Source of the DNA: Minisyncoccota bacterium
GTDB taxonomy: Bacteria; Patescibacteriota; Minisyncoccia; Phycocordibacterales; CSBR16-193
DNA: 64,000 nt
Assembly: GCA_040905715.1 (NCBI GenBank)
Contig: JBBDRA010000003.1
Location: 263,142-327,141 of the forward strand
Direction of reading: 5' to 3'
Part shown: positions 5,247-57,598 of the stretch, piece by piece
Numbering within the stretch: position 1 is the stretch's first letter
Layout: each line of letters starts with the position of its first letter
Notes under the pieces: model-generated
What the model was told of the DNA's origin: nothing
What the model saw: only the letters and a program-made list of their open reading frames with translations
Databases searched by the model: none
Translations under genes and position numbers: made by a program

Positions 5247-5306
5247 AGCAAGAGGTATTAGTTGCTCTAATCCACACGAGACATGTTCTTCGCCGTGGTA
5301 ATATAA

Positions 5307-6449
5307 ATGTATTACTACGCTAACTACTCAAATGCAATGAAAAATCGTTTTCCGGCCTCGCTTCAGTTATACTTCGGTTTGCTTTTGTTTGGGGTTGCAG
5401 GGTTCTTTCTCACGCTATTTTTGTATCCGCCTACCGGGTTTTACGGCTTCGTTCTATTCGTTGCACTTGGAGGTTTCGGGGTTGCTGCCAATATTTTTAG
5501 GACCAAGCGATCGGGTGAAGAGCTGGTCTGCCCAAGTGGTTCCGATTGTAACGTGGTGGTCAATAGTCGGTTTTCGAAGTTCTTTGGTATCCCGCTTGAG
5601 ATCCTTGGGATGACCTACTTCGCCTTAATTGCGATATCGTACTCAATTCTCCTTTTTATTCCGCAGGCCATTGAAGGAAACCTACTTCTTGTTGTCGCAC
5701 TAGCGACAATGGCGGCAGCACTTTTTTCGCTGTACTTGTTGTTCGTGCAAGCATTCTTGCTCGGCGCATGGTGCATTTGGTGCATTCTTTCTTCTATGTT
5801 CTCGCTGGTGATCTTTGCGATATCGTTTGTTACGCTTGAGCGCGCCGGTGTGCCGGTCTATGATTTTCTCATGAGCATAGAGGGGTTGCTTGAGTTTCTC
5901 AAATTCTTTGGTTATACCTTGGGAGTAGGGGCGTCTACAAGCGCTGTTATGCTCTTCTTTAATTTCTTGAGAGACTTGGACATAAGCGATAAGGAGCTTA
6001 CAACCCTCAAAGGACTCACTGAACTTGTGTGGGCCGGATTTGGCTTTGTGCTTGTGACACTTCTGATATCCTTTATCATGCTGATCTCTGTTGAGGTAGA
6101 GCCTCTGACATCTGTTGCTGCTCCGCTGGTAACTCAGATCGTTGTGCTCCTAACACTCGGCTTTACTCTTGCTGTGTTGATGATCTTGTACGCACCGTTC
6201 CTTGTATTCATGCCGTTCGCTACTAAGAAAGATTCGTGTGCTGAGTGGTTGAACGCACTACGACTTCCGACGTTTATTGTTGGTGGCCTTGTACTTGCAA
6301 GTTGGTACTATGCGTTCACGCTTAATTTCCTCCCGGAGTATTCGCTTTCTCTGCTCCTTGGCGCATACGGTATAATACTTGCCGTTGCCGCTGCTGTTGC
6401 TTGGTTGGTGGAGCGTCGGTTTCGGGCGGTTAAGCAAGGAAATGAGTAG
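5307..6449 (+). CDS. VKOR (vitamin K epoxide reductase) family domain fused to a C-terminal polytopic membrane domain
   Basis: Loop cysteine pair CPSGSDC followed by S..SKFFGIPLEILGMTY, and CIWC (CxxC) in a TM helix, form a VKOR-like core. About 200 further aa of TM helices follow, with no Trx domain. Confidence 0.55.
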   Translation: MYYYANYSNAMKNRFPASLQLYFGLLLFGVAGFFLTLFLYPPTGFYGFVLFVALGGFGVAANIFRTKRSGEELVCPSGSDCNVVVNSRFSKFFGIPLEILGMTYFALIAISYSILLFIPQAIEGNLLLVVALATMAAALFSLYLLFVQAFLLGAWCIWCILSSMFSLVIFAISFVTLERAGVPVYDFLMSIEGLLEFLKFFGYTLGVGASTSAVMLFFNFLRDLDISDKELTTLKGLTELVWAGFGFVLVTLLISFIMLISVEVEPLTSVAAPLVTQIVVLLTLGFTLAVLMILYAPFLVFMPFATKKDSCAEWLNALRLPTFIVGGLVLASWYYAFTLNFLPEYSLSLLLGAYGIILAVAAAVAWLVERRFRAVKQGNE

Positions 6450-6720
6450 TTTGCGTAGATAGAGTGCTAATTCAAGGTGTCGGGGTTGACTTTTACATCT
6501 ATACAAGCTATTATGTTTGCACATCAAATCTCGCGAGTATTTCTCGAGTTCCTCGTTTAGAAACAAGAGTGACTCAGCAGGAAGAAGGAGTCGAACGTAC
6601 AGTGTCTATCACCAGTTCATTCGTCTCAACGCAGCACGCATAAAGCAGTGTTCAACTCCCGGGACGATGAACGGTATGTAAAAGCACCGGCCGTAGTTTA
6701 TTACGGTGCATATTTATTTT

Positions 6721-8004
6721 ATGGAAAGACAGAATCAAAGTCGGTCATATGGCCGAAGTGGCTCATATGGACGAGGAGCTGCAAGTACAGGAAACAGACG
6801 TTCACGACCGTATAACGGTGGAGGAAATAATCGATCACGCTCACGTAACGGTGGTGGTGGTTTTCGAAGTAAAGGACGCGGAGGCGGTCGAAGAGCTGGA
6901 AAGCAGCAGATCGATATCGCACGCTTTATTAACCGAGCAGAACCGGCGGCAGAAGTTAAGGCATACGAGCCACAACACAAATTTGCTGACTTTGCGCTCG
7001 ATGCTCGTCTAAAGAGCAACATTGCTACGAAGGGCTATGTTGACCCAACACCGATTCAGGATCAGATCATCAAACATGTTCTTGAGGGTAAGGATGTGGT
7101 AGGGATCGCTAACACCGGAACCGGTAAGACGGCAGCATTTCTGCTTCCTCTCATTGATAAGGTATTAAATAATCCGAAAGAGCGGGTAATGGTTATTACG
7201 CCGACTCGTGAGCTTGCCCAGCAGATCGAGCAAGAACTTATTTCGTTTACGAAAGGACTACGTATTTTTGCCACATCATGTGTCGGAGGTGCGCCGATCG
7301 GACGACAGATCTCACGCTTGAAACGACACAATCACTTTGTGATCGGAACTCCCGGTCGACTGAAGGACCTGGTAGAGCGACGAGTGCTTTCTCTGAACGG
7401 CTTTAATACGCTTGTTCTGGACGAGGCTGATCGGATGCTTGATATGGGATTTATCGATGACATGAAACAGATCATGGCCGGTATGCCTAAAGAGCGTCAT
7501 ACGCTGTTCTTCTCGGCAACAATGTCGAAGGAGATCACGGCGCTCATCAGCACATTCTTGAAGGAACCGGTAACTGTTTCAGTAAAAACCGGTGACACCT
7601 CAAAGCAGGTGGATCAGGATGTTGTGCGAACGCGAGGTGCGGACAAACTTGATGTTCTTCACGATCTCTTGAATCAATCAGATTTCGAACGTGTACTTGT
7701 TTTTGGTGAGACCAAGCGTGGTGTTGAGAAACTCTCTGCCTTGCTTACCAAACGCGGTATTCGTGCGGAAGCTATTCACGGCAATAAAAGTCAATCTCAA
7801 CGTGAGCGAGCATTGAAGAAATTTAAAGACGGACACGCCAAAGTATTGGTGGCAACTGATGTTGCTGCTCGCGGACTCGATATTAATAACGTCTCGCACG
7901 TTATCAACTACGATACTCCGCAAACCTACGATGACTACGTTCACCGTATCGGCCGAACAGGTCGCGCCGGAAAAACCGGAAAGGCACTGACGTTCATCGG
8001 ATAA
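6721..8004 (+). CDS. DEAD-box ATP-dependent RNA helicase with N-terminal Arg/Gly-rich (RGG-like) tail
   Basis: Motifs ANTGTGKT, PTRELA, VLDEADRML (DEAD), SAT, HRIGRTGRAG. N-terminus is rich in RSR/GGG repeats. ATG 6721 preferred over the GTG at 6706. Confidence 0.9.
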   Translation: MERQNQSRSYGRSGSYGRGAASTGNRRSRPYNGGGNNRSRSRNGGGGFRSKGRGGGRRAGKQQIDIARFINRAEPAAEVKAYEPQHKFADFALDARLKSNIATKGYVDPTPIQDQIIKHVLEGKDVVGIANTGTGKTAAFLLPLIDKVLNNPKERVMVITPTRELAQQIEQELISFTKGLRIFATSCVGGAPIGRQISRLKRHNHFVIGTPGRLKDLVERRVLSLNGFNTLVLDEADRMLDMGFIDDMKQIMAGMPKERHTLFFSATMSKEITALISTFLKEPVTVSVKTGDTSKQVDQDVVRTRGADKLDVLHDLLNQSDFERVLVFGETKRGVEKLSALLTKRGIRAEAIHGNKSQSQRERALKKFKDGHAKVLVATDVAARGLDINNVSHVINYDTPQTYDDYVHRIGRTGRAGKTGKALTFIG

Positions 8005-11208: not shown

Positions 11209-12903
11209 ATGAATCAAGATACAGCTCTCGACATCCTCAAGATCGGTGCCAATGTATTTCTCACCGGAGAGCCCGGTTCAGGCAAAACGCACACTATAAA
11301 TCGCTATATTGAGTACCTGGAGCGACACAGCGTAGACCCTGCAGTGACCGCGTCAACCGGTATTGCGGCAACTCACGTGGGAGGTTACACCATCCACTCC
11401 TGGAGCGGGATCGGTGCGCGAACCGAGCTTGATGAGTGGGCACTCGAAGAGCTTACGCAAAAAGAGGCTGTGGTCAAACGAGTGAACAAGACCGATGTGT
11501 TGATCGTTGAGGAGGTCTCGATGCTCGACGCACGGTTTATCGATACGCTCGACGAGGTCCTCCGGGCGCTGCGTCAAAGCGAAGAGCCGTTTGGCGGAAT
11601 GCAGGTCGTGTTCGTCGGTGACTTCTTCCAGTTGCCACCGGTCTCACGTGAGCGGCAGATGCAGTTCGCGTTTCGCTCAAATGCCTGGCGCCAGGCAAAA
11701 CCTGTCGTGTGTTATTTGAGCGAGCAACACCGACAGGAAGATGAGGCATTTCTTTCTCTGCTCACGGCGCTTCGTCGTCGCGATGTGCGAGACGAGCACG
11801 TGGATGCACTTCGGGAACGCAAGATGGATCCGGGTGACCAACTCGATGAACCGGCAACGCAGCTGTACAGTCACAACGCGGACGTCGATCGTATCAACGA
11901 CGAAGAGCTGGGCAAGCTCTCTACAAAGCTCTGTACGTATGAGATGCATTCTGAAGGCACGAAGTCTGTTGTTGAACAGCTTAAACGAGGCTGCCTTTCT
12001 CCGGAGACGCTGACATTAAAGATCGGCGCGGTGGTCATGTTCACCAAGAATAATTTTGAAGAGCGGTATGTGAACGGCACAGTCGGCGAAGTGGTGGATT
12101 TTGACAGTTCTGACAATCCGATCGTCGAGACCACTACCGGCGAGCGTATCACGGTCGGTCCGATGGATTGGGCAGTCGAGCACAACGGCAAGATCCGGGC
12201 CAAGATTAATCAGCTTCCGTTACGTCTTGCCTGGGCGATAACAGTTCACAAGAGTCAGGGAATGAGTATGGACTCGGCGATCGTTGATCTCTCGAAAGCG
12301 TTTGAGTATGGGCAGGGGTATGTGGCGCTCTCACGTGTGCGCACACTTAAAGGTCTTCACTTGATAGGCTTTAACGAGCGTGCGCTTCAGGTGCATCCGG
12401 ATGTAGCTGATCAGGATCAGGAATTTCACAGCCGATCAAAGGCGGCTGAGAAGAGATTTGCTGAATTAGATGCTGCAAAGCTTCAAAAAATGCATGACAA
12501 CTTTTTAACCGCGATCGACGGGACGCTCGGCGAGATAAGCGATGAGGAATTTCATGGGTCAAAGGAAGAAAAGCGAGCCCGCAGCAGTTCCGGCGAGACG
12601 TATGAGAAGACCTTGAACTACCTGAATGAAGGCTGGAAGATCAGTGATATCGCTAAAGAGCGCAGACTAGCGGCATCGACCGTATTTTCACACCTCGAGA
12701 AGTTGGTTAATAACGGTCGGCTTGATCCAAATTCGCTCAAATACCTCTGGGAAGAAACGCAACGCTCGTTCGATGAGTTGGATGATATTCACGGTGCGTT
12801 CAACGAACTCGATACCATAAAACTCACACCTGTGATGAAGCATTTTGATAATGAGTATACGTTTGATGAGTTAAAGTTGGCGAGAATACTGAAATTGGAC
12901 TGA
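11209..12903 (+). CDS. PIF1-family (RecD-like SF1B) helicase with C-terminal helix-turn-helix extension
   Basis: Walker A GEPGSGKT; VTASTGIAAT; IVEEVSMLD; FGGMQVVFVGDFFQLPPV (PIF1 signature); ITVHKSQGM. C-terminal ~80 aa are HTH-like (ISDIAKERRLAASTVFSHLEKL). Confidence 0.8.
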   Translation: MNQDTALDILKIGANVFLTGEPGSGKTHTINRYIEYLERHSVDPAVTASTGIAATHVGGYTIHSWSGIGARTELDEWALEELTQKEAVVKRVNKTDVLIVEEVSMLDARFIDTLDEVLRALRQSEEPFGGMQVVFVGDFFQLPPVSRERQMQFAFRSNAWRQAKPVVCYLSEQHRQEDEAFLSLLTALRRRDVRDEHVDALRERKMDPGDQLDEPATQLYSHNADVDRINDEELGKLSTKLCTYEMHSEGTKSVVEQLKRGCLSPETLTLKIGAVVMFTKNNFEERYVNGTVGEVVDFDSSDNPIVETTTGERITVGPMDWAVEHNGKIRAKINQLPLRLAWAITVHKSQGMSMDSAIVDLSKAFEYGQGYVALSRVRTLKGLHLIGFNERALQVHPDVADQDQEFHSRSKAAEKRFAELDAAKLQKMHDNFLTAIDGTLGEISDEEFHGSKEEKRARSSSGETYEKTLNYLNEGWKISDIAKERRLAASTVFSHLEKLVNNGRLDPNSLKYLWEETQRSFDELDDIHGAFNELDTIKLTPVMKHFDNEYTFDELKLARILKLD

Positions 12904-20193: not shown

Positions 20194-22341
20194 GTGGGCA
20201 TAAAAATGGATCTATATAAGATATCTCAGAAGATTGCATGGGTTAGGACGGTAGCTATTATCAGTCTTCTAGCAATTTCTGGAACTCTTGTGCTTCCAGC
20301 TCACTCGATGCTAGCAGTAGACAACGCTTCAGAAAGTATTCACGTACAGTGGCCTACACAGGGCCGTTCTGATACGCTCGAGCATACATTTCTGGCGGAA
20401 GTTGAAGACATGAATACGGACAGCTACGAGCTGTACTGGTCTGTCGATGGCGGTGATCGTGTCGCTATGAGCGATCGGGATGGATTTGAACAGACTTGGA
20501 TCAATTTCAGTAGCTGGTACTGGAATGAGGACGGACCGTATGAACTACGTTTTATTGCCGTGGATGACGATGGCGATGAAATAGCTCGTACCGGACTGTC
20601 TCTCTATCGTGTTGAAGTTAATGGAAACAAAAGCAACATGGTGACCGATAGTGAGGTTAGTAGTACTAAACGAGAACCGATCGAGGTTGCTGATAGTGAT
20701 GAGGTTGTAGACAGGGAAGAGGAGGAAAGTGTAGACGATGAGAATAAGACAGAGAAAAGGGCCGAGTCAACGGACGATGAGGAAGTGAGTGAGGAAAGTG
20801 AGTTATCTGAAAATACAGATGTGAATGCTGGTGAGGATTCAGGTAGCGAATCTTCTGATGAGGAGTCAGAAGAGCTAACCAGTGAAGAGGCGAGTGCTAA
20901 CAGCGAAGAGAATAATGATGAAGAGAATGAATCACTCAGTGATCTAGAAGAGGAAAGCAATGACAACGAGTCCTCAAGTGACGACTCTGCTGACAAAAAA
21001 TCAGAAGAGTTAGATGAAGAGAGTGAAAATGATTCTGACATTTCTGAGTGGTTTACTATTACCGGTAACGTAGAAGATAGTGGTGTAGGTGATACTACCG
21101 AGGTTTCGTTTACTGTTGTGAACACCGGAGGCCCTGCAGAGGATACTATAGTTGACCTTGAGATCTTTAACGAAGAAGGCTCTCAGGTATACCAAGACTA
21201 TAAGATCGATCAGTCATTTGAAAATGATCAGGATCGAGACTATCAGTTCACATGGAAGCCTGATACCGCCGGCACATACAGTGCCTCAGTCGGTATCTTC
21301 AAGCCGTCATGGTCATCTATCTATAGCTGGCATGATGACATTGCCTCGTTCGAGATAGTTGATAACGGGTCATCGTCATCTGAAGAAAATGATGACGGTT
21401 CTGAATCAGTGGAGTCTAATGACTCAGATCCACAGGATCAGGACGACTTGTTGAACGGCGATAGTAGCGAAATCTCGATGAGCGAAAGTGACTTCTATAA
21501 TGAAGAAGGTCCTGCGGACCGACAGTACGATGAGTGGAAGGACGATCGACCGGAAGATGCTGAGTTGATCAAAAAAATCGTTGATCAGCCGATAGCCAAG
21601 TGGTTCGGTGGCTGGAACAACGATATTAAAAGCGACGTAGACGCGTATGTCTCAAAGGCACACAAGCAAGGAAAGACGCCGGTAATGGTGGCATACAATA
21701 TTCCTGATCGCGACTGTGGCTCGCACTCAGCCGGTGGATTAAGTAGCCTTTCTGAGTATGAGCAATGGATAAATGATTTTGCTGACGGTATTGATGGCCG
21801 TGATTCGATCGTTATCCTTGAGCCCGATGCTGCTGCGTTGACCAACTGTCTGGATGATAACGAACGTGAAGCACGCCTGATCGTTCTTGGTGAGGCGGCA
21901 GCAGTTCTTCGTGACCACGGAGCTAAGGCGTACATCGATGCAAGTCATGCAAACTGGCTTAGCGCTAATGATATGGCCGATCGACTGAAGAGTGCCGGTA
22001 TTGAAAAAGCAAGTGGGTTTGCATTGAATACCTCGAACTTTGTCTCTACCGAAAAGAATCTTCAGTACGGACGAGATATCTCAAAGCAGACAAACGGTGC
22101 GCATTTTGTCATTGACACGTCCCGAAACGGAAATGGTGCAGCGAGTGACAATGAGTGGTGTAATCCGGAAGGTCGCGCATTAGGTCAGAAACCGACCTTT
22201 GTCGACAACGACCCGCTCCTGGACGCATTTATTTGGACGAAGGTTCCGGGTGAGTCGGATGGTAAATGCAACGGAGGACCTGCTGCAGGTGTGTGGTGGC
22301 CAGAGTACGCACTCGGTCTTGCGGAGCGAGCTGATTGGTAA
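20194..22341 (+). CDS. secreted glycoside hydrolase family 6 (cellulase) with Ig-like N-domain and long acidic Ser/Glu/Asp-rich linker
   Basis: Signal peptide. C-terminal catalytic domain carries GH6 hallmarks: VAYNIPDRDCGS (PDRDC), VILEPDAAAL (EPDSL), YIDASHANWL (DAGHAGW), FIWTKVPGESDG. The middle ~250 aa are low-complexity acidic. Confidence 0.85.
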   Translation: MGIKMDLYKISQKIAWVRTVAIISLLAISGTLVLPAHSMLAVDNASESIHVQWPTQGRSDTLEHTFLAEVEDMNTDSYELYWSVDGGDRVAMSDRDGFEQTWINFSSWYWNEDGPYELRFIAVDDDGDEIARTGLSLYRVEVNGNKSNMVTDSEVSSTKREPIEVADSDEVVDREEEESVDDENKTEKRAESTDDEEVSEESELSENTDVNAGEDSGSESSDEESEELTSEEASANSEENNDEENESLSDLEEESNDNESSSDDSADKKSEELDEESENDSDISEWFTITGNVEDSGVGDTTEVSFTVVNTGGPAEDTIVDLEIFNEEGSQVYQDYKIDQSFENDQDRDYQFTWKPDTAGTYSASVGIFKPSWSSIYSWHDDIASFEIVDNGSSSSEENDDGSESVESNDSDPQDQDDLLNGDSSEISMSESDFYNEEGPADRQYDEWKDDRPEDAELIKKIVDQPIAKWFGGWNNDIKSDVDAYVSKAHKQGKTPVMVAYNIPDRDCGSHSAGGLSSLSEYEQWINDFADGIDGRDSIVILEPDAAALTNCLDDNEREARLIVLGEAAAVLRDHGAKAYIDASHANWLSANDMADRLKSAGIEKASGFALNTSNFVSTEKNLQYGRDISKQTNGAHFVIDTSRNGNGAASDNEWCNPEGRALGQKPTFVDNDPLLDAFIWTKVPGESDGKCNGGPAAGVWWPEYALGLAERADW

Positions 22342-22411
22342 GAACTTCCTTGGGCAGATACTGCCAGTAAGTGGAGCTTGCTCCAACTGGGTTAGAAGGA
22401 AGTATTGACGC

Positions 22412-22445
22412 AAAAAACACTTCACCGATCTGGTGAAGTGTTTTC
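22412..22445. terminator. bidirectional terminator between GH6 gene and the glycan operon
   Basis: AAAAAA-acacttcacc-gatct-ggtgaagtgt-TTTT, a 10-bp perfect stem. Confidence 0.75.
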
Positions 22446-22492
22446 GTGTACAGTTTTTGTCTACTCAGTAGCTTACTTTTAAGCAGGAGGAT

Positions 22493-24016
22493 CTAGTTTA
22501 CTACCTGTGCTTCAACTTGTGGCGAATCATCATACCAATCCGGTACCTCGTATACATATAGCTCAAGGCCGGGCGAATACTCTTTACGATATATCTCTGT
22601 AAAATTATTATCAAAGTATCTCTTTACTTCTTCTTGGTATCCCTGATCGTAACTGAGTAGAAGCCAAATGCGCTCATGCCACGGTGCTGATTGGCGCATA
22701 ACAAGATTCATATCTTCTTCTGAAAATGGCGGAAGCTCTTGTCCGCGGTACCTCTCCCACGGGGGAATCATGTAAACGCCGGCATGCCCTTTGTAGTAGT
22801 AGTCAAATGGATATACTGAGAATGAAGCAGACAGAACCACCATATCACGAGCTGTTACTTCTTTATTGATGTCTGCAACTGCTTCACGATAATTTTCTCG
22901 AACCGGGGTTTCAGGATGGTATGCCTGAATAGTGAGGGTTGAAATCATTAGAAAAACAAGGGCAATCTGGACAGTAGTTGAGAGAGGGCGGGCATAATTA
23001 ATAACAATCCAGGCAACGAACAGGAAGATCGGCATGACTGCGAGCACCATGTAACGGGAAAGAAAGATCGGAGTGATCAGGATGCTTACCAAAAACACAA
23101 TCGCAACCGGTAAGATAAAACCAACTAAGAGATAAGAGGTTACCGGTGATGTTGAGCGTTGATTGCGTAGTGCGAAGAATCCGGCCAGAGCAATAAGCGG
23201 CCAAAGTGAGACAATCATTGAGTTTATTGGGTCCGGTTGAAATCCAAAGAAAAAATGGGAAAAAACATTGAAGAGGTTCACCGGTGTCGGCGTAACGAGG
23301 AATGGTTGTGATCCAACACCACCATCTACACCCATAAATACATAAAGGAGCCAGGGAGAAAACGCAAGAACAACGACCAGTGCCGACGCCAGAAAAGACA
23401 AAAATGCTCCTGAATGAAATTGCTTCTGATTGAAGAAGAAATATACTGCTTGAACCAACAGAACAAACGAAAAGAAGTAGTGGGTGTATATGCCGATAAT
23501 AGCGATCAGTGTATAGCATGCCCAAACCCAGACCGGCTGCTTGCGCCACAGTCTCAGATAAAAATAATGACTCAGAGTGGTAAGGAGAGCAAAAAGTGTG
23601 TACATGCGGACCTCGTTACCAAACCAGTTCATGAAAGGGGAGATGGTGAAAAGAGTGGTTGCAAACAAACCAGTTGCCCGATTGTACGCGATCTCTCCCA
23701 GCTTATAGAGTGCCGGTATGGTTAGCAGGAAGAAGAGGAGGGACAAGATTCGTCCGTTAACTACCGTTGGCTCCAGTACGGATTGCCAGACATGTAGAGT
23801 TAGGTGATAGGCGGGAACATGTACATTGTCAGACAGTATTTTGATGATCTCTCGAGGACTTTGGCTCGTTTGCCATAAGCTTTGCGCTTCATCGAGACGT
23901 ATTCCTTCGTATAGAAAGAATATATGTGATACTGCTGCTGCAAACACCACAAGCGTGATAAGCGTAAGGAGTGTTGTTTTTTCTGAAATATGTGATGATC
24001 GGTCGGTCGGTAGCAT
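22493..24016 (-). CDS. GT-C fold membrane glycosyltransferase, ArnT/PMT-like (GT39/GT83, PMT_2 domain)
   Basis: 507 aa polytopic protein. First periplasmic loop has LDEAQSLW (DE motif), followed by a PMT_2-like TM pattern. Last gene of the 5-gene minus-strand operon. Confidence 0.7.
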   Translation of the reverse strand: MLPTDRSSHISEKTTLLTLITLVVFAAAVSHIFFLYEGIRLDEAQSLWQTSQSPREIIKILSDNVHVPAYHLTLHVWQSVLEPTVVNGRILSLLFFLLTIPALYKLGEIAYNRATGLFATTLFTISPFMNWFGNEVRMYTLFALLTTLSHYFYLRLWRKQPVWVWACYTLIAIIGIYTHYFFSFVLLVQAVYFFFNQKQFHSGAFLSFLASALVVVLAFSPWLLYVFMGVDGGVGSQPFLVTPTPVNLFNVFSHFFFGFQPDPINSMIVSLWPLIALAGFFALRNQRSTSPVTSYLLVGFILPVAIVFLVSILITPIFLSRYMVLAVMPIFLFVAWIVINYARPLSTTVQIALVFLMISTLTIQAYHPETPVRENYREAVADINKEVTARDMVVLSASFSVYPFDYYYKGHAGVYMIPPWERYRGQELPPFSEEDMNLVMRQSAPWHERIWLLLSYDQGYQEEVKRYFDNNFTEIYRKEYSPGLELYVYEVPDWYDDSPQVEAQVVN

Positions 24017-24028
24017 ATGATGAGATGA

Positions 24029-25678
24029 TTATGAGTTTGAGTGTGGTCCGCGGCCCCCCTGATCTGTTGATGCAAAAGAAGCAGATGGATTTGGAGCACC
24101 ATGTACTATTTGAATGCGCCGTCGTGGTCTATTGCTCCAGCGACGAAAAGGTTGCTTGAACCAGTTAATCGCGCTTCTCCTCTGGGCCGGTGCGGCAGCG
24201 TATATGAAGGGAATAAATACACTCACATAAATAGTTGTCCAAGCAATGTTGTTCATGATGGATGGCGAAAGACCTTCGCGACTTATTCCGACAACTATTG
24301 CAATAGCCGCCAATGTTATGTACAAGATCTGAGGAAGCGCTAGGTATAAGAAGTTTCCATTGAGTGCTTTTTTTGAGGTGACAGCGAATACACTTTTGTG
24401 TCGTAAGAGGGCTGAGGCTAAAGCTGAGAGATGTATGTTGAACATACTTATTGAGAAAGCAAGCGATCCAAAGGTAAATGAATAGTTGCTCGCGCGTTGG
24501 ATCGTGTAAAGCGTGGTTATGATGTAAGGTAGAAATATTAGTGCGAGGGTCATTGTGGCAACATCGAATGGAACTATTCCAAAAAAGAGGTAGATCAAAG
24601 GTATAAGCGCAAAGGCGATCACGATGATCCCGGATAAGAAGTAAGAGACCGAGGAGAGATACAGTATTCGCTGACGAAAGGTAAGACCGCGACAGAAAAC
24701 AAGATTGTATCGGAAAATAATATCAAGCGCTCCTCGCGCCCAGCGGTGTTGCTGTTTGTAATAGGAGAAAAAATCCTCCGGCGCAAGCCCTTCTGCTAGC
24801 ACTTTCGGCACGTAGATCGATTTCCAACCCTGTTGATGGAGGAACATACCGGTTGCAAGGTCTTCCGCGATACTTTCTTCGCACATTCCTCCGATCTTTT
24901 CGAGTGCGCTACGGCGGATCACCATGTTTGTGCCGCATAGCGTTGTTGCGTTGAGTCGGTCTTTTCCTCGCACGATCGGTCCGTAGAATAATTGTTGTTG
25001 CGCCCAGGCAACTCTGGTAATAAAGCTAAGTCCCGCGTTGTAATAGAATTGCGGTGTCTGAATATACGCTACATTTGGATCGGCACAGTACGGCATGGTT
25101 TGAGTTAAAAAATCGGTGTGTGGTTGGTAGTCGGCATCAAAAACAACAATGAAAGGGGCATGGGTGTGCCTAAGTCCGTTATTAATATTTCCAGCCTTGG
25201 CACCACCTGGCGTTTTTCTAGTAATGCAGGAAATGCCGCATTCGTAGGCAAGACGTTCGATGTCTTGCCAATTATCTTTACCTGCAACGTAGCCGTCATT
25301 TAAAATAGTGATCGAAAAATTCGGATAGACCATTGCCTTGGTCGCAAGAACAGTTCCGCGAACGGTTTCAATCGGTTCTCCGGCTACTGTGATAAATATG
25401 TCTACAGGCGGGGTAAAAGATGCATTTTTATAGTGATGCACTTTTTTCCCATACACTGTGTACAGGAAAGTTAGTGATTGCCATAAGAAATAAAGTTGCC
25501 CGATCACCAGGACCGTGAAAAGCCAACCACTTGAATATGGCAGCCAAAACGCAATAATGACAAAGTAACTGATCGCCAAGAGTGTATTAATGAGTACAAG
25601 CCAGTAGGGTACGTGTGAGTCACGCAGGAATTGCTTGTCGTCTGGTCGAAACGGTTGTGGGGTAGTGGCTGATGTCAT
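24029..25678 (-). CDS. processive family-2 glycosyltransferase, cellulose-synthase-like (BcsA/Csl/HAS superfamily)
   Basis: VDIFITVAGEP (D), KAGNIN, VVFDADYQP (DxD), AEDLATGM (TED-like), QQHRWARG (QxxRW). Two N-terminal and ~4 C-terminal TM helices. No convincing PilZ domain. Confidence 0.8.
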   Translation of the reverse strand: MTSATTPQPFRPDDKQFLRDSHVPYWLVLINTLLAISYFVIIAFWLPYSSGWLFTVLVIGQLYFLWQSLTFLYTVYGKKVHHYKNASFTPPVDIFITVAGEPIETVRGTVLATKAMVYPNFSITILNDGYVAGKDNWQDIERLAYECGISCITRKTPGGAKAGNINNGLRHTHAPFIVVFDADYQPHTDFLTQTMPYCADPNVAYIQTPQFYYNAGLSFITRVAWAQQQLFYGPIVRGKDRLNATTLCGTNMVIRRSALEKIGGMCEESIAEDLATGMFLHQQGWKSIYVPKVLAEGLAPEDFFSYYKQQHRWARGALDIIFRYNLVFCRGLTFRQRILYLSSVSYFLSGIIVIAFALIPLIYLFFGIVPFDVATMTLALIFLPYIITTLYTIQRASNYSFTFGSLAFSISMFNIHLSALASALLRHKSVFAVTSKKALNGNFLYLALPQILYITLAAIAIVVGISREGLSPSIMNNIAWTTIYVSVFIPFIYAAAPAQRRSAINWFKQPFRRWSNRPRRRIQIVHGAPNPSASFASTDQGGRGPHSNS

Positions 25679-26934
25679 GATGAAGAAGGGTACGATGTTA
25701 CGAGTGCTGTGTAATTTGGAAGTAGCTCATTGTAAAGACCGACACTAAACCACCGCCAATTTGTACCGTAGTAGCCAGGATCATCTTTCCAGGCATACCA
25801 TGTTGGGTTATAAAGATTTATCATCTTTTCTGTATATATTTCTTCGGCACTTTCTGGATCGGCGACCATAAAATAGCCCAGTGTTCCCGCGTACATTGAA
25901 GCGGATTCAAAGTTATCAATGATCGTGCCGTCATGACCATAGGAGGCCTGAAGCTTTTTTTCTGATCTCCATTGAGTTCCTAAAAAATCCATTTTTTCCA
26001 GAAGTTCTTTTGATCGCTCGTCCTGAAACCACTGCCAGTCAAGAGCAAGTCGCCACGGTGTTCGAAGAGCTTCAAAACCAAAGTTAGTAGTGAGATCAGG
26101 ATTATCAGATGCTATGATCTCGCCGGTGGTAGTATCTATCTCGATCCAATCAGGGGGAAGAACGGCGCTCGTCTCTGTATTGAGCGGTTGCTCCATTGAT
26201 CTCTCAATAATTTCGTAAGAATGTGAGGCCAGATCGTTCCAGCGGTGTTCCGGATCCTCATCTATCTGCGCAAATATTTTATAGGCGTAGGGAGCTAGGT
26301 ATGACGGGTTCACTATCACTGAGTTTTTCGGTAGCGTTTTTTCAACGTTGTTTGCTAAAAGATACGGGTCGCCATTGATCACGATCACTTCCTTGTTCCA
26401 GATATCAGTTATTACTTGGCGTGCCTCTATAAGGTACTGTTCGTCTTGCCATCTACCATAGGCGAGTGCGAGCGCAAGAGCAATATCCGTGTCGGCATCA
26501 CTAGCTGTATTGTGGCCACCATGCTCATCAAGAACACCGTAGGATCCGTCTTCTCGTTGTCCGAAAAGCCAGCTGAAGAGGTGGTCTTCGCCGTCTCGGC
26601 GTAAGTTATCTTTCGTCCAACGCCAGTTATTGTCAAAGGTTTCTTTATCATCCATCCAGACAGCTCTGAGCATGGTATAGCTTTGACCTTCTGATGTCGT
26701 AATATTTCCACGTTCGCGATCGAGGGTTCGATGAGTTCCTGCTTCTAAGTAGTCGTTCTTGTAGTTTTCCCAGAGACCGTTCATAACATCACGATTAGAG
26801 TAGATAATCGTGTTGTTGTATTGTAAAAAGTCCGTGAGGTTGAATATCGTATTTATGATCACAAAAATACCGATGAGAAACCCGAGCATCGTGATCGTAA
26901 CAGTGAGCTTTTTTTGTTTCGGGGTCATTCCCAT
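25675..26934 (-). CDS. glycoside hydrolase family 8 endoglucanase (BcsZ-like), N-terminal membrane anchor
   Basis: Catalytic TTSEGQSYTMLRAV. GH8 signature ASDADTDIALALALAYGRW. Stop overlaps the start of the downstream GT2 (ATGA). Start set at the ATG complement of 26932-26934. Confidence 0.85.
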   Translation of the reverse strand: MGMTPKQKKLTVTITMLGFLIGIFVIINTIFNLTDFLQYNNTIIYSNRDVMNGLWENYKNDYLEAGTHRTLDRERGNITTSEGQSYTMLRAVWMDDKETFDNNWRWTKDNLRRDGEDHLFSWLFGQREDGSYGVLDEHGGHNTASDADTDIALALALAYGRWQDEQYLIEARQVITDIWNKEVIVINGDPYLLANNVEKTLPKNSVIVNPSYLAPYAYKIFAQIDEDPEHRWNDLASHSYEIIERSMEQPLNTETSAVLPPDWIEIDTTTGEIIASDNPDLTTNFGFEALRTPWRLALDWQWFQDERSKELLEKMDFLGTQWRSEKKLQASYGHDGTIIDNFESASMYAGTLGYFMVADPESAEEIYTEKMINLYNPTWYAWKDDPGYYGTNWRWFSVGLYNELLPNYTALVTSYPSSS

Positions 26935-26944
26935 AGAAGTATGA

Positions 26945-27286
26945 TTAAACAGCTTGATCGTTGCCGGCGATGATACGCCTCTCTGATTCACGGGCGCGCT
27001 CAGCGGCTGCGTAGTAGATAACAAGGTTGCGAACGTAAATTAATAGAGCAAGGCCCTGTCCCGCGATAAACACAATATCAACGCGGTAGATAGCGTAAAC
27101 CAAGATCATAGCCGCTCCGGCGATCGACAGGTACCAAAATGAGAGCGGCACGACAGTTTCCCTGGCTCGTTCGCTGGCGATCCACTGAACAATGAACCGT
27201 AAAAAGAACACGAATTGAGCCCCAAATCCGAAGAGCACCCAGGGATTAGACAGTTCAGAGAGAATGTAGGTAATAATGTTTGACAT
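26945..27286 (-). CDS. LAB_N (lipid-A-biosynthesis N-terminal domain)-like small membrane protein, putative polyprenyl-P-sugar flippase partner of GtrB-like GT2
   Basis: FGAQFVFFLRFIVQWIASERARETVVPLSFWYLSIAGAAMILVYAIYRVDIVFIAGQGLALLIYVRNL matches the LAB_N consensus pattern. It sits 5 nt downstream of the GT2. Confidence 0.7.
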   Translation of the reverse strand: MSNIITYILSELSNPWVLFGFGAQFVFFLRFIVQWIASERARETVVPLSFWYLSIAGAAMILVYAIYRVDIVFIAGQGLALLIYVRNLVIYYAAAERARESERRIIAGNDQAV

Positions 27287-45457: not shown

Positions 45458-46372
45458 ATGAAACAATTTATCGTAATACTAGTGATCGTTCTGATAGCTT
45501 TGGGTGTATTCGGTTGGACGCAGGGTTGGTTTAACAGTGATCTCACTACTGAACCTGATACCGAGCAAGATGGTGAAAATGATGAGAACTCAACAGGCAC
45601 AACAACCGATAAGGAAGATGGAGTTGGACTGGATGAAGATGGTGGAGTCATCGGTTCGTCTGCGGGTGATCGTGACATTATGGCGTATCAGTACGGCGAT
45701 GGTTCTACGGAACTACTCTTTGTGGGTGGTGTTCATGGTGGATATAGCGCAAATACCGCACTGGTCGCGTTCGAGGTAATGGATTGGCTGGAAGAGAATC
45801 CGAATGTTATTCCGGAGAATGTGAAGGTAACTGTTATCCCTGTCTTGAATCCGGACGGACTGAACGAAGTTGTTGGTACAACGGGTCGGTTCTCAGTGTC
45901 TGATATTCCGTCTGGAGATCGATCAGCCGGTCGGTTTAACGCAAACAATGTAGATTTGAATCGTAACTTCGATTGTAACTGGCAGTCTACCGGCACATGG
46001 CAAAGTCAGGAAGTTGATGCCGGAGACAGCGTATTCTCTGAACCGGAAAGTCAGGCACTTCGAGACTATATTCGTTCAAACGAACCTGACGCAGCGGTCG
46101 TATTCTTTAGTGCGGCGGGTGAGGTAGTTGCTTCAAGCTGTAACAACGATTCACTCCCGGAAACACAGCAGATGGTCAGTACCTACGCTAATGCGTCCGG
46201 GTACACCGCACAGGAAACGTTCGGATACTATGACATTACCGGAGACGCGGTTGATTGGATGGCTAAGCAAGGTATCCCGGCTATTAGTGTAGTGCTTGGA
46301 TCACATAATTCAGCTGAATGGAGCAAGAATAGAGCGGGTATTGAGGCATTGTTTGAGCGGTACGAAAACTAG
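45458..46372 (+). CDS. M14-like zinc carboxypeptidase / gamma-D-glutamyl peptidase-like, membrane anchored (paralog 1)
   Basis: N-terminal TM. GGVHGGY.., NPDGLN, and the M14 block GRFNANNVDLNRNFDCNW. Tandem paralog of the next gene. Confidence 0.6.
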   Translation: MKQFIVILVIVLIALGVFGWTQGWFNSDLTTEPDTEQDGENDENSTGTTTDKEDGVGLDEDGGVIGSSAGDRDIMAYQYGDGSTELLFVGGVHGGYSANTALVAFEVMDWLEENPNVIPENVKVTVIPVLNPDGLNEVVGTTGRFSVSDIPSGDRSAGRFNANNVDLNRNFDCNWQSTGTWQSQEVDAGDSVFSEPESQALRDYIRSNEPDAAVVFFSAAGEVVASSCNNDSLPETQQMVSTYANASGYTAQETFGYYDITGDAVDWMAKQGIPAISVVLGSHNSAEWSKNRAGIEALFERYEN

Positions 46373-46415: not shown

Positions 46416-47294
46416 ATGGATAAAAAAACATGGGTCATTATTAGCGTTGTTGCCTGTGTCGGACTCGGTCTTATTATTTTGTTTCTCCTTCTTCCCGGAG
46501 ATTCAGAGCCGGCCAAAACTGCAACGTCAACACCGGAGATAACAAGGGACGAGCCGGTGCGTAGCGTGATCGGTACATCGGTAGAAGGCCGTGAGATAGA
46601 GGCGTATACGTTTGGAAACAGTGAAAAACATGTTGCGTTTGTCGGAGGTATTCACGGTGGATATGAATGGAACAGCATTCTTCTGGCGTATCAAATGATG
46701 GATCATCTGGAGGAGTACCCCGAGGTGATACCAGATGATGTGCGTGTTACTATTATTCCATCGGCGAATCCTGACGGGCTGGCACGTGTTATGGGTACAA
46801 CAACCGGACGATTTGCTGCAGCTGATGCGCCGCCTACGGAGCAGACGACAGAAGGTCGGTTTAATGCGAATGGGGTTGACCTCAATCGGAACTTTGATTG
46901 TAACTGGGCGCCTGAGAGTAGTTGGCGTGGCGAGACTGTGAGCGCAGGTACCGAAGCGTTCTCAGAGCCGGAAGCTATTGCGATCCGCACCTTTGTTCAA
47001 AATACAGATCCTGATGCGGTGATCTTCTGGCACAGTGCGGCCGGGGCGGTTTACGGATCCGAGTGTAATGACGGAATCCTTCCGGGAACGCTCGAGATCA
47101 TGAATACGTACGCTGACGCTGCCGGCTATGCCGCAGTGCCGTCGTTCGATGCGTATCCTATTACCGGCGATGTGGAGGGCTGGCTGGCTTCTATCGGTGT
47201 TCCATCGATTACGGTTGAACTCAGTACGCATGAAGATCTGGAGTGGGAAAAGAACAAAGCCGGGGTAGAAGCGATCCTTCGAAGTGTTGAGTAA
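46416..47294 (+). CDS. M14-like zinc carboxypeptidase-like, membrane anchored (paralog 2)
   Basis: GGIHGGYEWNS, NPDGLA, GRFNANGVDLNRNFDCNW. Collinear with paralog 1 over the whole length. Confidence 0.6.
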   Translation: MDKKTWVIISVVACVGLGLIILFLLLPGDSEPAKTATSTPEITRDEPVRSVIGTSVEGREIEAYTFGNSEKHVAFVGGIHGGYEWNSILLAYQMMDHLEEYPEVIPDDVRVTIIPSANPDGLARVMGTTTGRFAAADAPPTEQTTEGRFNANGVDLNRNFDCNWAPESSWRGETVSAGTEAFSEPEAIAIRTFVQNTDPDAVIFWHSAAGAVYGSECNDGILPGTLEIMNTYADAAGYAAVPSFDAYPITGDVEGWLASIGVPSITVELSTHEDLEWEKNKAGVEAILRSVE

Positions 47295-52824: not shown

Positions 52825-53307
52825 TTAGTGCCGGTATCGACGATCACGTCGATCACGTCGACGATAATCTCGATCATCGTCGTAGCTTATCCGGTTACGG
52901 TCTCGTCGGTCACCGTAGTCGCGCCGACCAGAGTCCCAGCGGGAATCACGATCGTGACTTTCCCAAACGCAGTTCCGGTTATCACGACGGTCACTAAATC
53001 TTCCAGTGTGGCGTTCACGACCAAAGCGTCGATCAGTCCGCACTTCGATCGGGTATAAACTTCGTTCTGGTCTCACGGTAATCGTGCTGCGTGGTTGGCG
53101 AACTCGTCGATCGTTCCGATCACTGTGCTGACCTCGCTCGAGATACTCAATGCGCTCCTTCAGGACAGCAGTTTCTCGTTCAAGCTGTTGGACGCGGTCT
53201 TCGAGATCGTTGACCTTCTGGTCGTTGCCTGTCTGACCGTACGCCATTGTATGGAGTCCCAGTAGGAACATCAGTGTCGCCACGGTAGCAGGGACAAGAA
53301 TTCTCAT
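52825..53307 (-). CDS. secreted protein with coiled coil and Arg/Asp-rich (RD-repeat) C-terminal tail
   Basis: Signal peptide MRILVPATVATLMFLLGLHTMAYG, coiled coil (LEDRVQQLERETAVLKERIEYLE), then an RDRRDR-type low-complexity tail. Confidence 0.5.
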   Translation of the reverse strand: MRILVPATVATLMFLLGLHTMAYGQTGNDQKVNDLEDRVQQLERETAVLKERIEYLERGQHSDRNDRRVRQPRSTITVRPERSLYPIEVRTDRRFGRERHTGRFSDRRDNRNCVWESHDRDSRWDSGRRDYGDRRDRNRISYDDDRDYRRRDRRDRRYRH

Positions 53308-53432
53308 CTTTATTCTCCCGTGTAAAATGTGCAAAAGTACAAATCAAACGTGTTTAGTTATACATTACCTATAAAAACGTGTTGTGTCAATAGGGCTTGC
53401 CGGAGGATGTATATGCTACACTTACTGGTACT

Positions 53433-54805: not shown

Positions 54806-54943
54806 CCACTGACTCGGTCATTGAGCAAAGATGTAAAAACCGTTCGCTAGTGGGCGGTTTTTGCTATTGTCTAGCGCATGTTCTCTTGATGTGTGTGAGG
54901 TTGTATTGAGTTAGTGGAGTGGGTGATATGGTATGATGCTTCT

Positions 54944-55789
54944 ATGAGTCAAGATAAATACAGTGCGGTGTGGGTATCGTATTCAGGATTAAGTACGTTC
55001 CTGAAATGTCCGCGAGCCTATTACCTACAGTATATGTATAAAGATCCGCAAACGCGACGCAAGATCTCTGAGATGACCCCGCACCTTGCACTTGGTCAGG
55101 TTGTGCACAATACGATCGAGCCGTTGGCGAACGTCCCGGCTGAAAAACGATTCGATCAGCCGATCATGGATATTTTTGAGCGCCACTGGTCTACGATCAG
55201 TGGCGAGAAAGGTGGGTTTATAAGCATTGAGGAGGAAGTAGAAATGAAAGAACGAGGTAGATCTATGATCAAACGAGTTGTTGAGCATCCGGGCGCATTA
55301 AAACGAAAAGCAACTCGCATTCCTCCGACGCCGAGTGGTATGCCACCAAACTTTTATCTTTCTGAGGAGGATAACATTATTCTATGCGGAAGTATCGACT
55401 GGCTCGAGTATCTTGAGGACACAGACAGCGTCCACATAATTGATTTTAAAACCGGTAAACGAGAAGAAGAGGGCAGATCGTTGCAGCTGCCGATGTATTT
55501 ATTGCTTGCACGTAATTTACAAAAACGTTCGGTAGCAAAGGCGAGTTACTGGTATCTCGATCGATCAGATACTCTTGATGAAAAAGAGTTGCCGACATAC
55601 GAGGATGCATTTGAGCAAGTTTTAACTGAGTCAAGAAAGTTAAAAAAAGCACGAGAAGCAAAGGATCTTTCTTGCCCGCAGGGCGGCAGCTGTTTTGCCT
55701 GTAGTTCATTTGAGAAAATTATTGTGGGCGAAGCGACCTGTATTGGTTCAAATGAGATGAATAAAGACGTGTATGTCGTATCTCGCTAA
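54944..55789 (+). CDS. PD-(D/E)XK nuclease, Cas4/RecB-like with Fe-S cysteines
   Basis: N-terminal KCPRAYY Cys; GSIDWLEY / HIIDFKTGK (D, D/ExK); QLPMYLLL (QhxxY); C-terminal CPQGGSCFAC (C-x5-C-x2-C). Confidence 0.7.
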   Translation: MSQDKYSAVWVSYSGLSTFLKCPRAYYLQYMYKDPQTRRKISEMTPHLALGQVVHNTIEPLANVPAEKRFDQPIMDIFERHWSTISGEKGGFISIEEEVEMKERGRSMIKRVVEHPGALKRKATRIPPTPSGMPPNFYLSEEDNIILCGSIDWLEYLEDTDSVHIIDFKTGKREEEGRSLQLPMYLLLARNLQKRSVAKASYWYLDRSDTLDEKELPTYEDAFEQVLTESRKLKKAREAKDLSCPQGGSCFACSSFEKIIVGEATCIGSNEMNKDVYVVSR

Positions 55790-56735
55790 ATGTGTGACAG
55801 GACGAGTGAAAAGCAAGGTGGTGCTTGCGGTGATGATCGCGAGTATTTTTGTAGGTGTAGTAGTCGCGATCGGATTTCTTGCCTTCACGGTAGATGAACT
55901 CACCGATCAACAAGCGAGTATTGAGCAGGATTTGGCAGACATTACAGGGGAGTTGCAAACTACTAGCGTATCACTTGAGCAGGCCCAATTAGCGCTCGAT
56001 ACGATCATTGAAAATAATCAAGAACTTCAAGAGAAGCTAGCTCTTGCTCAGGAAAATCGAGAAAATACTGAACGTGTGCTGAGTCAGACCAGAGAGCAGG
56101 TCGGTGAACTCGAAGTTGAGTTGGATGGAAAGATAGGCGAGGAGCAGCTTAGTGCGCTTGTTCAGGAGTGGGAGCCCCGTATCGCCCGAATAGAATGCGT
56201 GTTTCGTAATAATGATGGGGGCACCTCGCGTTCAAATGCCTCTGCGGTCTCCGTGCTTCGGCAGGGAGAAGTGCAATTCATAACAAATAAGCATGTGTTG
56301 GTCCAGAAGGGTCATTCACTGGTAAATTGCGAATTGGCTGTGCCGGGAATCGGTGATGGCTTGCGTGTAGAACCTGAGTCAGCCGAATTTTCAGGCACAC
56401 TCGATATCGCCTATGTTACCTTGTCTGATCAGCCGGCTGAGCTTGTGGCAGAGGCGTCGGGCGTTAGAGTCTGTAGTGAGCCGCCGTCATTTGGCTCAAG
56501 AGTGCTTATACTCGGCTATCCAGCGACCGGTTCCAAAAGCGGGATAACCGCAACAGACGGGATACTATCCGGGTTTGAAGAAAATTACTATATTACGTCC
56601 GCCAAGATAGAGCGCGGTAATTCCGGCGGGGCGGCAGTTCTTGTAAAAGAAGGTTGCTTTATCGGCTTGCCGACATTGGTGGTGGTTGGTCAGGTGGAAT
56701 CTTTGGCGCGAATTCTGCCTGTTACGTCTCTCTAG
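55773..56735 (+). CDS. membrane-anchored coiled-coil protein with C-terminal trypsin-like (S1) serine protease domain
   Basis: N-terminal TM, about 90-aa coiled coil, then ITNKHVL (His), LDIAYV (Asp), GNSGGA (Ser) triad. Start overlaps the upstream nuclease by 17 nt. Confidence 0.65.
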   Translation: MSYLAKCVTGRVKSKVVLAVMIASIFVGVVVAIGFLAFTVDELTDQQASIEQDLADITGELQTTSVSLEQAQLALDTIIENNQELQEKLALAQENRENTERVLSQTREQVGELEVELDGKIGEEQLSALVQEWEPRIARIECVFRNNDGGTSRSNASAVSVLRQGEVQFITNKHVLVQKGHSLVNCELAVPGIGDGLRVEPESAEFSGTLDIAYVTLSDQPAELVAEASGVRVCSEPPSFGSRVLILGYPATGSKSGITATDGILSGFEENYYITSAKIERGNSGGAAVLVKEGCFIGLPTLVVVGQVESLARILPVTSL

Positions 56736-56742
56736 AATCTAG

Positions 56743-56767
56743 AATAACTAAACGAAAGTTAGTTATT
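56743..56767. terminator. AT-rich hairpin between convergent protease and PPC genes
   Basis: aataactaa-acgaaag-ttagttatt. Weak because it is all A/T. Confidence 0.3.
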
Positions 56768-57190
56768 TGGAAGGTCGAGGAGCGGTAGGCATGAGCGTTC
56801 ATCGTAGGTTCTTTGAAGAGGGTCATGGGTAAACAGTGTTATCTCACACGTTGGCTCCGCAATAGCTTCTTTGAGGTGTCCGCCACATGCTTGATGATCT
56901 GCTCCGGCAAGTGTGATGTGCGCATGTATCAGTAGCGTCTCGTCATAGAGAGCTACATTTCCTGTGAGGTTAGTGATCTCGTGAGGTTTTGTGATATCAG
57001 AATACGTATACTCAAAATTATTTATGTGATACATGCCGATCGTTGCTGAGCGGACGGCACCGATACCAAAGAACGATCCGCCATTGATTTTTTGATCTGC
57101 ACAAAATTCTTCAAGTGTTTGTTTGATCCCGTCGCCCTGAGGGATGCGAATAATATAACCAAATGTAGTGTGTTGGTACGACATGTTCAA
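56759..57190 (-). CDS. PPC/DUF296 domain protein (PD1-like predicted DNA-binding)
   Basis: GYIIRIPQGDGIKQTLEEFC..GSFFGIGAV..IGMYH....HAHITLAGADHQACGGHL pattern of the PPC domain. Confidence 0.65.
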   Translation of the reverse strand: MNMSYQHTTFGYIIRIPQGDGIKQTLEEFCADQKINGGSFFGIGAVRSATIGMYHINNFEYTYSDITKPHEITNLTGNVALYDETLLIHAHITLAGADHQACGGHLKEAIAEPTCEITLFTHDPLQRTYDERSCLPLLDLPNN

Positions 57191-57262
57191 AAGTATTGGG
57201 ATAGAGACTAGTAATAAGTGTAAAAAGCTAGGTTAAGTATATCGTAAAAAACAAGAGATATT

Positions 57263-57295
57263 AAAAAACCACCATACGCTCAGGGCGTATGGTGG
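57263..57295 (-). terminator. rho-independent terminator after csrA
   Basis: ccaccatacgc / gcgtatggtgg 11-bp stem. The minus strand is followed by TTTTTTAATATC. Confidence 0.7.
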
Positions 57296-57318
57296 GTCAC
57301 TGGTTTGAGTTGCCTTAG

Positions 57319-57519
57319 CTACAGCAGGTCCTCGATCGCAACGCCTTCTCTTCTTTTTGCTTCAGCAAGCTCTCGGCGGTTTATCTCGACATCCTTTGGA
57401 AAGTCAAACCCCAGGCGAACTTTATCGCCATGAACTTCAACCACTCGGATAACGCCGATCGGATTTCTCGGGTCACCAACCACAATTTCCTCTCCCACTC
57501 TTCTGGTAAGGGCCAGCAT
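57319..57519 (-). CDS. csrA: carbon storage regulator CsrA
   Basis: MLALTRRVGEEIVVGD...IRVVEVHGDKVRLGFDFPKDVEINRRE matches CsrA throughout. Strong SD AAGGAGG 5 nt upstream of this ATG. Hairpin terminator downstream. Confidence 0.85.
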   Translation of the reverse strand: MLALTRRVGEEIVVGDPRNPIGVIRVVEVHGDKVRLGFDFPKDVEINRRELAEAKRREGVAIEDLL

Positions 57520-57598
57520 AACTCCCTCCTTGTAAAAGGTACATCGTCCGTGTAAATCACTCGGCAAAGGTAAATAACTATACTGATTTTTCCTAAAT

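Follow-up and report, generated by a model that had tools for sequence, protein, structure and literature searches.

Two overlapping genes on the + strand of a 64-kb stretch of a Minisyncoccota bacterium genome (hereafter the window, meaning the whole 64,000 nucleotides analysed, numbered from the first letter) encode a RecB-family nuclease and a membrane-anchored serine protease. We consider it about 65% probable that these are two vertically inherited housekeeping genes, probably with independent functions, that are co-transcribed and probably coupled in the window's family-level lineage of Paceibacteria, within the Candidate Phyla Radiation (CPR). The original prediction for this DNA had seen in the pair a resemblance to two-component abortive-infection or defence modules, and that idea found no support: the genes are mostly unlinked, their neighbours are housekeeping genes, the nuclease occurs throughout the phylum, and the two proteins are predicted to work in separate compartments. 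The open reading frames (ORFs) are as follows.

54944 to 55789, + strand: stand-alone RecB-family PD-(D/E)XK nuclease with a four-cysteine cluster, 281 aa (PF12705, motifs, AlphaFold2)
55773 to 56735, + strand: membrane-anchored, PDZ-less HtrA/DegS-like serine protease, 320 aa (Trypsin_2, profile searches, Foldseek, AlphaFold2)

Scans from both sides revealed that the two genes are seldom kept together. The nuclease-side scan took one genome per species and returned 80 loci, six of which carried a protease homologue within 3 kb. The protease-side scan covered 80 metagenome loci, 39 of them informative and 41 with flanks too short to judge; among the 39, the nuclease was adjacent to the protease in four and about 2.8 kb away on the opposite strand in three, and 32, each with flanks of 1.2 kb or more to either side of the protease, had no nuclease. 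A conserved gene pair would be adjacent in most lineages that have both genes, and this is not what we found. The original prediction had itself staked its case on conservation of the pair elsewhere, and with linkage at only 6 of 80 nuclease loci and 7 of 39 protease loci (four adjacent, three about 2.8 kb apart) the genes are mostly not together. A neighbour-joining tree of the nuclease placed the linked cases in three monophyletic clades, each with its own arrangement.

Clade 1: nuclease then protease, with a 17-nt overlap (the window, L007, L167 and L168)
Clade 2: Pif1 helicase, then protease, then nuclease (eight loci, including Vogelbacteria)
Clade 3: nuclease and protease on opposite strands, 2.8 kb apart (four loci)

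One further locus, L031, sits near clade 1 on the tree and has a 1.2-kb gap between nuclease and protease. Synteny in clade 1 extends downstream, where the block of PCC-domain, CsrA and M10 peptidase genes is kept in L167 and L168, and the genes for a SurA-like protein and an S-adenosylmethionine hydroxide adenosyltransferase (SAM_HAT) are kept in L167 as well; the upstream genes differ among loci. Because linkage is confined to three clades with differing arrangements and the wider downstream block is kept along with the pair, these patterns suggest that the synteny was inherited vertically and has since decayed in the majority of lineages, which is unlike an obligate module, and we infer that the two proteins function independently.

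The overlap itself, which the original prediction had pointed out, is kept in the relatives of clade 1. It spans 17 nt if ATG 55773 is the protease start; other in-frame starts lie at GTG 55806 and ATG 55833. The last of these, used in one database entry and giving a 300-aa protein, was rejected for 55773 because related loci keep both the N-terminus and the 17-nt overlap.

55773 to 55789, + strand: 17-nt overlap of the reading frames, with the protease ATG inside the conserved Tyr-Val codons (TATGT) of the nuclease C-terminus
L007 7830 to 7846, L167 6001 to 6017 and L168 2700 to 2716: the 17-nt overlap in relatives, with the protease ATG within the Tyr-Val codons each time

Proteases of these three loci begin M-[S/F]-[Y/F/W] and overlap the nuclease by exactly 17 nt, and they are only 36–54% identical to the window protease. 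Since the same form of start and exactly the same overlap recur in such divergent relatives, we regard the overlap as real and conserved in the lineage. Translational coupling of the two genes is probable on the basis of this arrangement, and the pair is likely to be co-transcribed in the window's family-level lineage. The two ORFs also look like a self-contained two-gene unit because a hairpin stands upstream, marking its 5' boundary, and a convergent gene downstream, marking its 3' boundary.

54833 to 54864, + strand: terminator-like hairpin, a 14-bp stem followed by a T run, 3' of the upstream DUF308 gene (terminator scan and sequence)
56759 to 57190, − strand: convergent PCC-domain gene (ORF call and Pfam)

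The nuclease belongs to the RecB family of iron–sulfur (Fe–S) nucleases (PF12705) and is not a Cas4, an ACE1 or an AddB in the strict sense. PDDEXK_1 (PF12705) was its top-scoring Pfam model, with 88.8 bits against a cutoff of 22 (E 6.9e-25; residues 11–253, model positions 2–240 of 247). Cas_Cas4 (PF01930) scored 17.7 bits, below its cutoff of 22.7, and the Cas4 model TIGR00372 scored 29.9 bits, below its cutoff of 65; NCBIfam matches to the nuclease regions of addB and rexB were weak and far below their cut-offs. In the domain searches that had been suggested as a check, PF12705 thus came out above threshold and PF01930 below, and Trypsin_2 matched the protease. An alignment of 27 nuclease homologues revealed that C22, H55, D152, D167-F-K169 (in DFKTGK), Q181-L-x-x-Y185, C244, C250 and C253 are invariant, which bears out the earlier description of a Cas4/RecB-family Fe–S-type nuclease with D, D/ExK and QhxxY motifs and one-plus-three cysteines.

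55007 to 55009, + strand: C22, N-terminal cysteine of the nuclease
55397 to 55399, + strand: D152, nuclease motif
55442 to 55450, + strand: D167-x-K169, nuclease motif
55484 to 55498, + strand: Q181 to Y185, nuclease motif
55673 to 55702, + strand: C244, C250 and C253, C-terminal cysteines of the nuclease

Judging from their positions in the sequence, these one N-terminal and three C-terminal cysteines would be placed to hold an Fe–S cluster of the "iron staple" type. The AlphaFold2 model (predicted local distance difference test score, pLDDT, 94) gave ACE1 as its top Foldseek match (9iac/9iab; TM-score 0.63, E 7e-8), followed by the nuclease domains of AdnA, AddB and Dna2 (E 3e-7 to 1e-3). 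Because the protein has no hydrophobic segment, it should be cytoplasmic.

Homologues of the nuclease number more than 5000 across Patescibacteria. None of the 80 loci is less than 49% identical to the query, though they come from Paceibacteria, WS6 and Microgenomates (Woese-, Levy-, Shapiro- and Blackburnbacteria); identity is at least 50% even in Microgenomates. The family falls into about 90 clusters at 50% identity, nearly all of them stand-alone and about 280 aa long. A profile search of 1.84 billion representative proteins for helicase–nuclease or protease–nuclease fusions returned essentially stand-alone proteins of about 280 aa only; the sole long match was an AddB-like protein of 1047 aa, with the nuclease match at residues 792–1026 (E 2e-19). 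This distribution and conservation form a core-gene pattern, unlike that of a patchy defence gene, and they put the stand-alone Fe–S nuclease among the best conserved of the uncharacterised Patescibacteria proteins seen here.

A protein identical to the nuclease is recorded in a Candidatus Paceibacterota metagenome-assembled genome (MAG; GCA_040876875.1, contig JBBDOW010000011), which places the window in the Patescibacteria. Many nuclease-bearing loci (L025, L030, L037, L038, L044 and others) stand in TPA_asm MAG records titled "uncultured Gammaproteobacteria", "Pseudomonadales" or "Saccharibacteria", titles that, judged by the gene content of the records, are probably mis-assigned. The Staskawiczbacteria locus L080 has two nuclease copies (4554–5417 and 7001–7840) about 1.6 kb apart, and all other sampled loci are single-copy.

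Comparison with known systems sets the nuclease close to several characterised families. ACE1 is its best match among solved structures in sequence profile (E 7e-5) as well as in fold; the two proteins are of similar length, both have a PD-(D/E)XK core that includes D-DxK, and each carries one cysteine towards the N-terminus and three towards the C-terminus, which bind Fe4S4 in ACE1. They are, however, only ~17% identical, and ACE1 is found in long-A prokaryotic Argonaute (pAgo) operons, whereas the window nuclease is paired with a Trypsin_2 protease and its family spreads across Patescibacteria. ACE1 itself (~278 aa, with an Fe4S4 cluster) is an endonuclease of single-stranded DNA (ssDNA) that cannot unwind duplex DNA (PMC12094033). 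The fold and cysteine pattern are also those of AddB, AdnA and Dna2, but the window nuclease differs from AddAB and RecBCD in standing alone at 281 aa without a helicase or helicase-like domain. No AddA/UvrD-type partner is encoded near it, and Pfam found no AddAB or RecBCD among the 10 large ORFs scanned in the window, which agrees with the original prediction that the nuclease is not part of such a system.

With Cas4 the nuclease shares its superfamily, motifs and four-cysteine arrangement; it differs in about 130 aa of additional helical sequence at the N-terminus, in falling below both Cas4 model cut-offs, and in having no cas1/cas2 module or array alongside. Every 23-mer of the 64 kb is present fewer than three times, so there is no CRISPR-like repeat array, and none of the 10 neighbouring proteins had a PADLOC match, although cas genes were not screened protein by protein over the full window; to this extent the pair lies away from CRISPR and cas genes, as had been stated. 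Solo-Cas4-family genes have already been described as abundant in CPR genomes and passed on vertically there, and their enrichment in small-genome bacteria has led to the proposal of an unknown defence or repair role (PMC5704561).

In the protease, a catalytic domain of the HtrA type is set within an unusual architecture. Trypsin_2 matched residues 165–299 (E 3.7e-11), and profile matches to DegS, DegQ, DegP and HtrA had E values of about 1e-8. The AlphaFold2 model (pLDDT 89.6) matched the protease domains of Deg2, DegS and HtrA1 in Foldseek at E values of about 1e-11, with plant Deg2/Deg9 also among the profile and fold relatives. Across 32 homologues the triad H174/D211/S284 (the serine in GNSGG) is invariant, as are four cysteines (C142, C186, C234 and C295) and a C-terminal ESLARIL motif. 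The earlier picture of a single-transmembrane, coiled-coil protein with a C-terminal S1 protease domain was therefore upheld, and its parts are as follows.

55818 to 55892, + strand: signal-anchor transmembrane helix, residues ~16–40, the sole hydrophobic segment (hydropathy maximum 2.9)
55893 to 56180, + strand: coiled-coil stalk of about 96 aa, residues 41–136 (AlphaFold2 helix, heptad periodicity)
56181 to 56732, + strand: S1C-type protease domain, residues 137–320 (homologue alignment, Pfam, fold matches)

Anchor and stalk form one continuous helix in the AlphaFold2 model (residues 14–136). Heptad periodicity over residues 41–136 had a p value of about 0.015, with LIVMF at 52% of a/d positions and 25% overall, and the stalk gave weak SMC/Rad50 coiled-coil matches. 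The N-terminal flank of the anchor carries four Lys/Arg plus the amino terminus and no acidic residue, the C-terminal flank has no basic and three acidic residues, and of 119 protease homologues, 87% likewise have the more positive flank on the N-terminal side. Because of the positive-inside rule applied to these flanks, the protease domain is predicted to face outwards, outside the cytoplasm, with the N-terminus inside.

Proteases of the HtrA group (S1C: DegS, DegP/DegQ, HtrA1 and plant Deg2/Deg9) have the same protease-domain fold and triad, and the window protease resembles DegS in its N-terminal transmembrane tether and in a protease domain predicted outside the cytoplasm. It differs in its stalk between anchor and protease domain, in its four invariant cysteines and ESLARIL motif, in a family restricted to Paceibacteria by source names, and in lacking a PDZ domain: Pfam gave no PDZ match, and the protein ends a few residues past the last protease-domain strand (309–316 of 320). 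A PDZ-less HtrA-like protease on a long coiled-coil stalk could bear on the cell surface biology of episymbionts. For the nuclease–protease pair in CPR we found nothing specific in the literature, the only directly relevant work being the Cas4 phylogenomics (PMC5704561) and the ACE1 study (PMC12094033).

A phage or mobile-element origin of the genes was considered and rejected: in a search of 50,697 phage records the protease had no homologue, and the nuclease had one distant match, a phage exonuclease at 27% identity.

Gene order in other lineages suggests a different partner for the nuclease. The window encodes a Pif1/RecD2-like helicase of superfamily 1B (SF1B), 42 kb from the nuclease; the only other helicase among the 10 large ORFs scanned is a DEAD-box gene at 6706–8004. 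In L010 and L013 an orthologue of the Pif1-like gene immediately precedes the nuclease and no protease is present; in L058 the orthologue lies 1.8 kb upstream of the nuclease, and in all eight clade 2 loci it stands upstream of protease and nuclease.

11209 to 12903, + strand: Pif1/RecD2-like SF1B helicase with a C-terminal HTH_40 domain, 564 aa (Pfam PIF1 E 7e-35, HTH_40 E 1.6e-16)
L010 5323 to 6981, L013 5260 to 6918 and L004 5282 to 6907: helicase orthologues

Against the RecD2 equivalog model the helicase scored 84.5 bits, below the cutoff of 500. Nucleases of the RecB family that act on ssDNA or DNA ends need a helicase for duplex DNA, and are so arranged in AddAB, AdnAB and Dna2. Because of this need and the recurrent gene order, the nuclease probably works with the helicase and not with the protease, a conclusion drawn from gene order alone. 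Together, the nuclease and the HTH_40 helicase may make up a split enzyme for end processing, similar to Dna2 or AddB, across Patescibacteria, which we consider more likely than a nuclease–protease module. A literature search on a Pif1–nuclease link in CPR, and on the RecBCD/AddAB status of Patescibacteria, returned nothing specific. The recurrence of nuclease with helicase offers a testable idea about the processing of DNA ends or imported DNA in reduced genomes.

We suggest that the nuclease is a soluble cytoplasmic enzyme, most likely cutting ssDNA or DNA ends made by a separate helicase, for which the Pif1/RecD2-like SF1B enzyme that neighbours it in other clades is the best candidate; its role would be in recombinational repair or in the processing of imported DNA. 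The protease would be a type-II membrane protein with a short cytoplasmic N-terminus, a transmembrane helix and a coiled-coil stalk that displays the protease domain outside the cell, where it probably serves the turnover of envelope or surface proteins or acts at the host interface.

Several observations weigh against reading the two genes as independent, or against parts of the roles proposed here. The genes lie within 3 kb of each other in three separate clades and in three arrangements, with tight same-strand packing in two of them (the 17-nt overlap, or gaps of 2–63 nt), and clade 1 retained the exact overlap while the protease diverged to 36% identity. Two genes picked at random from a genome of roughly 700 would be expected to show fewer than three linked arrangements, and the recurrent linkage could reflect weak selection for co-expression; because of this excess we keep a minority probability for a benefit of co-expression. 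Both the topology of the protease and Fe–S binding by the nuclease are predictions, and the helicase partnership rests on gene order in few clades, with no helicase–nuclease fusion among the representative proteins searched.

The same recurrence of linkage in differing orders, with tight co-directional spacing in two clades, speaks for a pair that is functionally coupled outside defence, perhaps through co-regulation of a surface protease and a cytoplasmic nuclease for the acquisition and processing of host macromolecules or DNA by an episymbiont, or as a DegS-like envelope-stress protease tied to DNA repair. Genes of DNA metabolism also recur near the protease, among them the Pif1-like helicase and clusters of Fpg-like and RecG-like genes (the latter two labelled from sequence by eye), and in the window an Nfo gene stands two genes upstream of the pair. 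We nevertheless consider such coupling unlikely: about 80–90% of sampled lineages keep nuclease and protease unlinked, and no mechanism joins an extracytoplasmic protease domain to a cytoplasmic nuclease. Moreover, the commonest neighbours of the protease appear to be translation genes (infC and rplT, assigned by eye), which points to synteny that is merely incidental where small genomes hold many information-processing genes.

The nuclease might also act by itself, as a solo-Cas4 or ACE-like defence or guide-generating nuclease whose partner, for example a pAgo, is encoded elsewhere and to which the protease is irrelevant. Its fold and length, closest to those of ACE1 with its one-plus-three cysteines and Fe4S4 cluster, are consistent with this idea, as is the defence or repair role proposed for solo-Cas4 enrichment in small genomes (PMC5704561). 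Identity to ACE1 is only ~17%, however (E 7e-5), and the window holds no Argonaute-sized ORF, its four ORFs of at least about 600 aa encoding a P-type ATPase, a GH6 glycosidase, an S9 peptidase and a CitMHS transporter. The recurrent neighbour of the nuclease is the Pif1/RecD2-like helicase, and near-universal presence with very strong conservation in Patescibacteria fits a core DNA-metabolism enzyme better, so that a solo role in defence seems rather improbable. Very unlikely, in our judgement, is a co-expressed functional module of nuclease and stalked protease in at least two Paceibacteria clades, serving for example host attack and imported-DNA processing or a new membrane-triggered defence; if such a module were real, the repeated re-creation of linkage in differing orders would reflect selection.

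PADLOC gave the nuclease weak matches to Cas4 and to an Argonaute-associated (Aga) Cas4-like nuclease model (2e-8), and the protease a weak match to the protease domain of RT-protease type XI (2e-6) along with coiled-coil noise. A known two-gene defence system (PADLOC-DB v2) was rejected as an identity for the pair, since these matches are weak, at the level of domains, and to unrelated systems, not to components of one system. The search for a defence island that had been proposed thus yielded only weak domain-level matches for the two proteins and none for the 10 neighbours. A two-gene anti-phage or abortive-infection module, with the membrane protease as sensor or executor and the nuclease as the enzyme that degrades DNA, would suit the tight operon with its conserved overlap, the kinship of the nuclease with ACE1 accessories of Argonaute defence and the PADLOC matches, but it is highly improbable given that the genes are separated in most lineages, that the nuclease is highly conserved phylum-wide and no patchy accessory, that the neighbours are housekeeping genes without PADLOC matches, that no base-composition anomaly is visible, that the protease has no phage or mobile-element relatives and its domain is predicted outside the cell with the nuclease inside, and that the PADLOC matches are domain-level and far weaker than the match to PF12705. 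As a defence candidate the pair therefore carries little weight, and the evidence points to ordinary vertically inherited genes.

The genes surrounding the pair encode Nfo, a DUF308 protein, the PCC-domain protein, CsrA, an M10 peptidase, a SurA-like protein or chaperone and the SAM hydroxide adenosyltransferase. The PCC-domain and CsrA genes adjoin on the − strand (56759–57567), and the M10/reprolysin-like peptidase gene follows on the + strand. Neither tRNA genes (ARAGORN) nor Rfam families above gathering score were detected in the window.

We also observed several features elsewhere in the window. At 52825–53334 (− strand) lies a 169-aa ORF whose N-terminus is hydrophobic; it also has a short stretch resembling a coiled coil and a repetitive tail extremely rich in Arg and Asp (…RDRNRISYDDDRDYRRRDRRDRRYRH). 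This ORF had no PADLOC match, and the called gene that corresponds to it has no Pfam match on record. M14 carboxypeptidases are encoded in tandem by two genes at 45458–46372 and 46416–47294 (+ strand), according to the Pfam annotation of the identical contig L001. Finally, positions 20194–27024 hold a polysaccharide (cellulose-type) gene cluster in this CPR genome, made up of the following genes.

20194 to 22341, + strand: GH6 glycosidase
22493 to 24016, − strand: PMT_2 glycosyltransferase
24029 to 25678, − strand: GT2/cellulose-synthase-like gene
25675 to 27024, − strand: GH8 glycosidase

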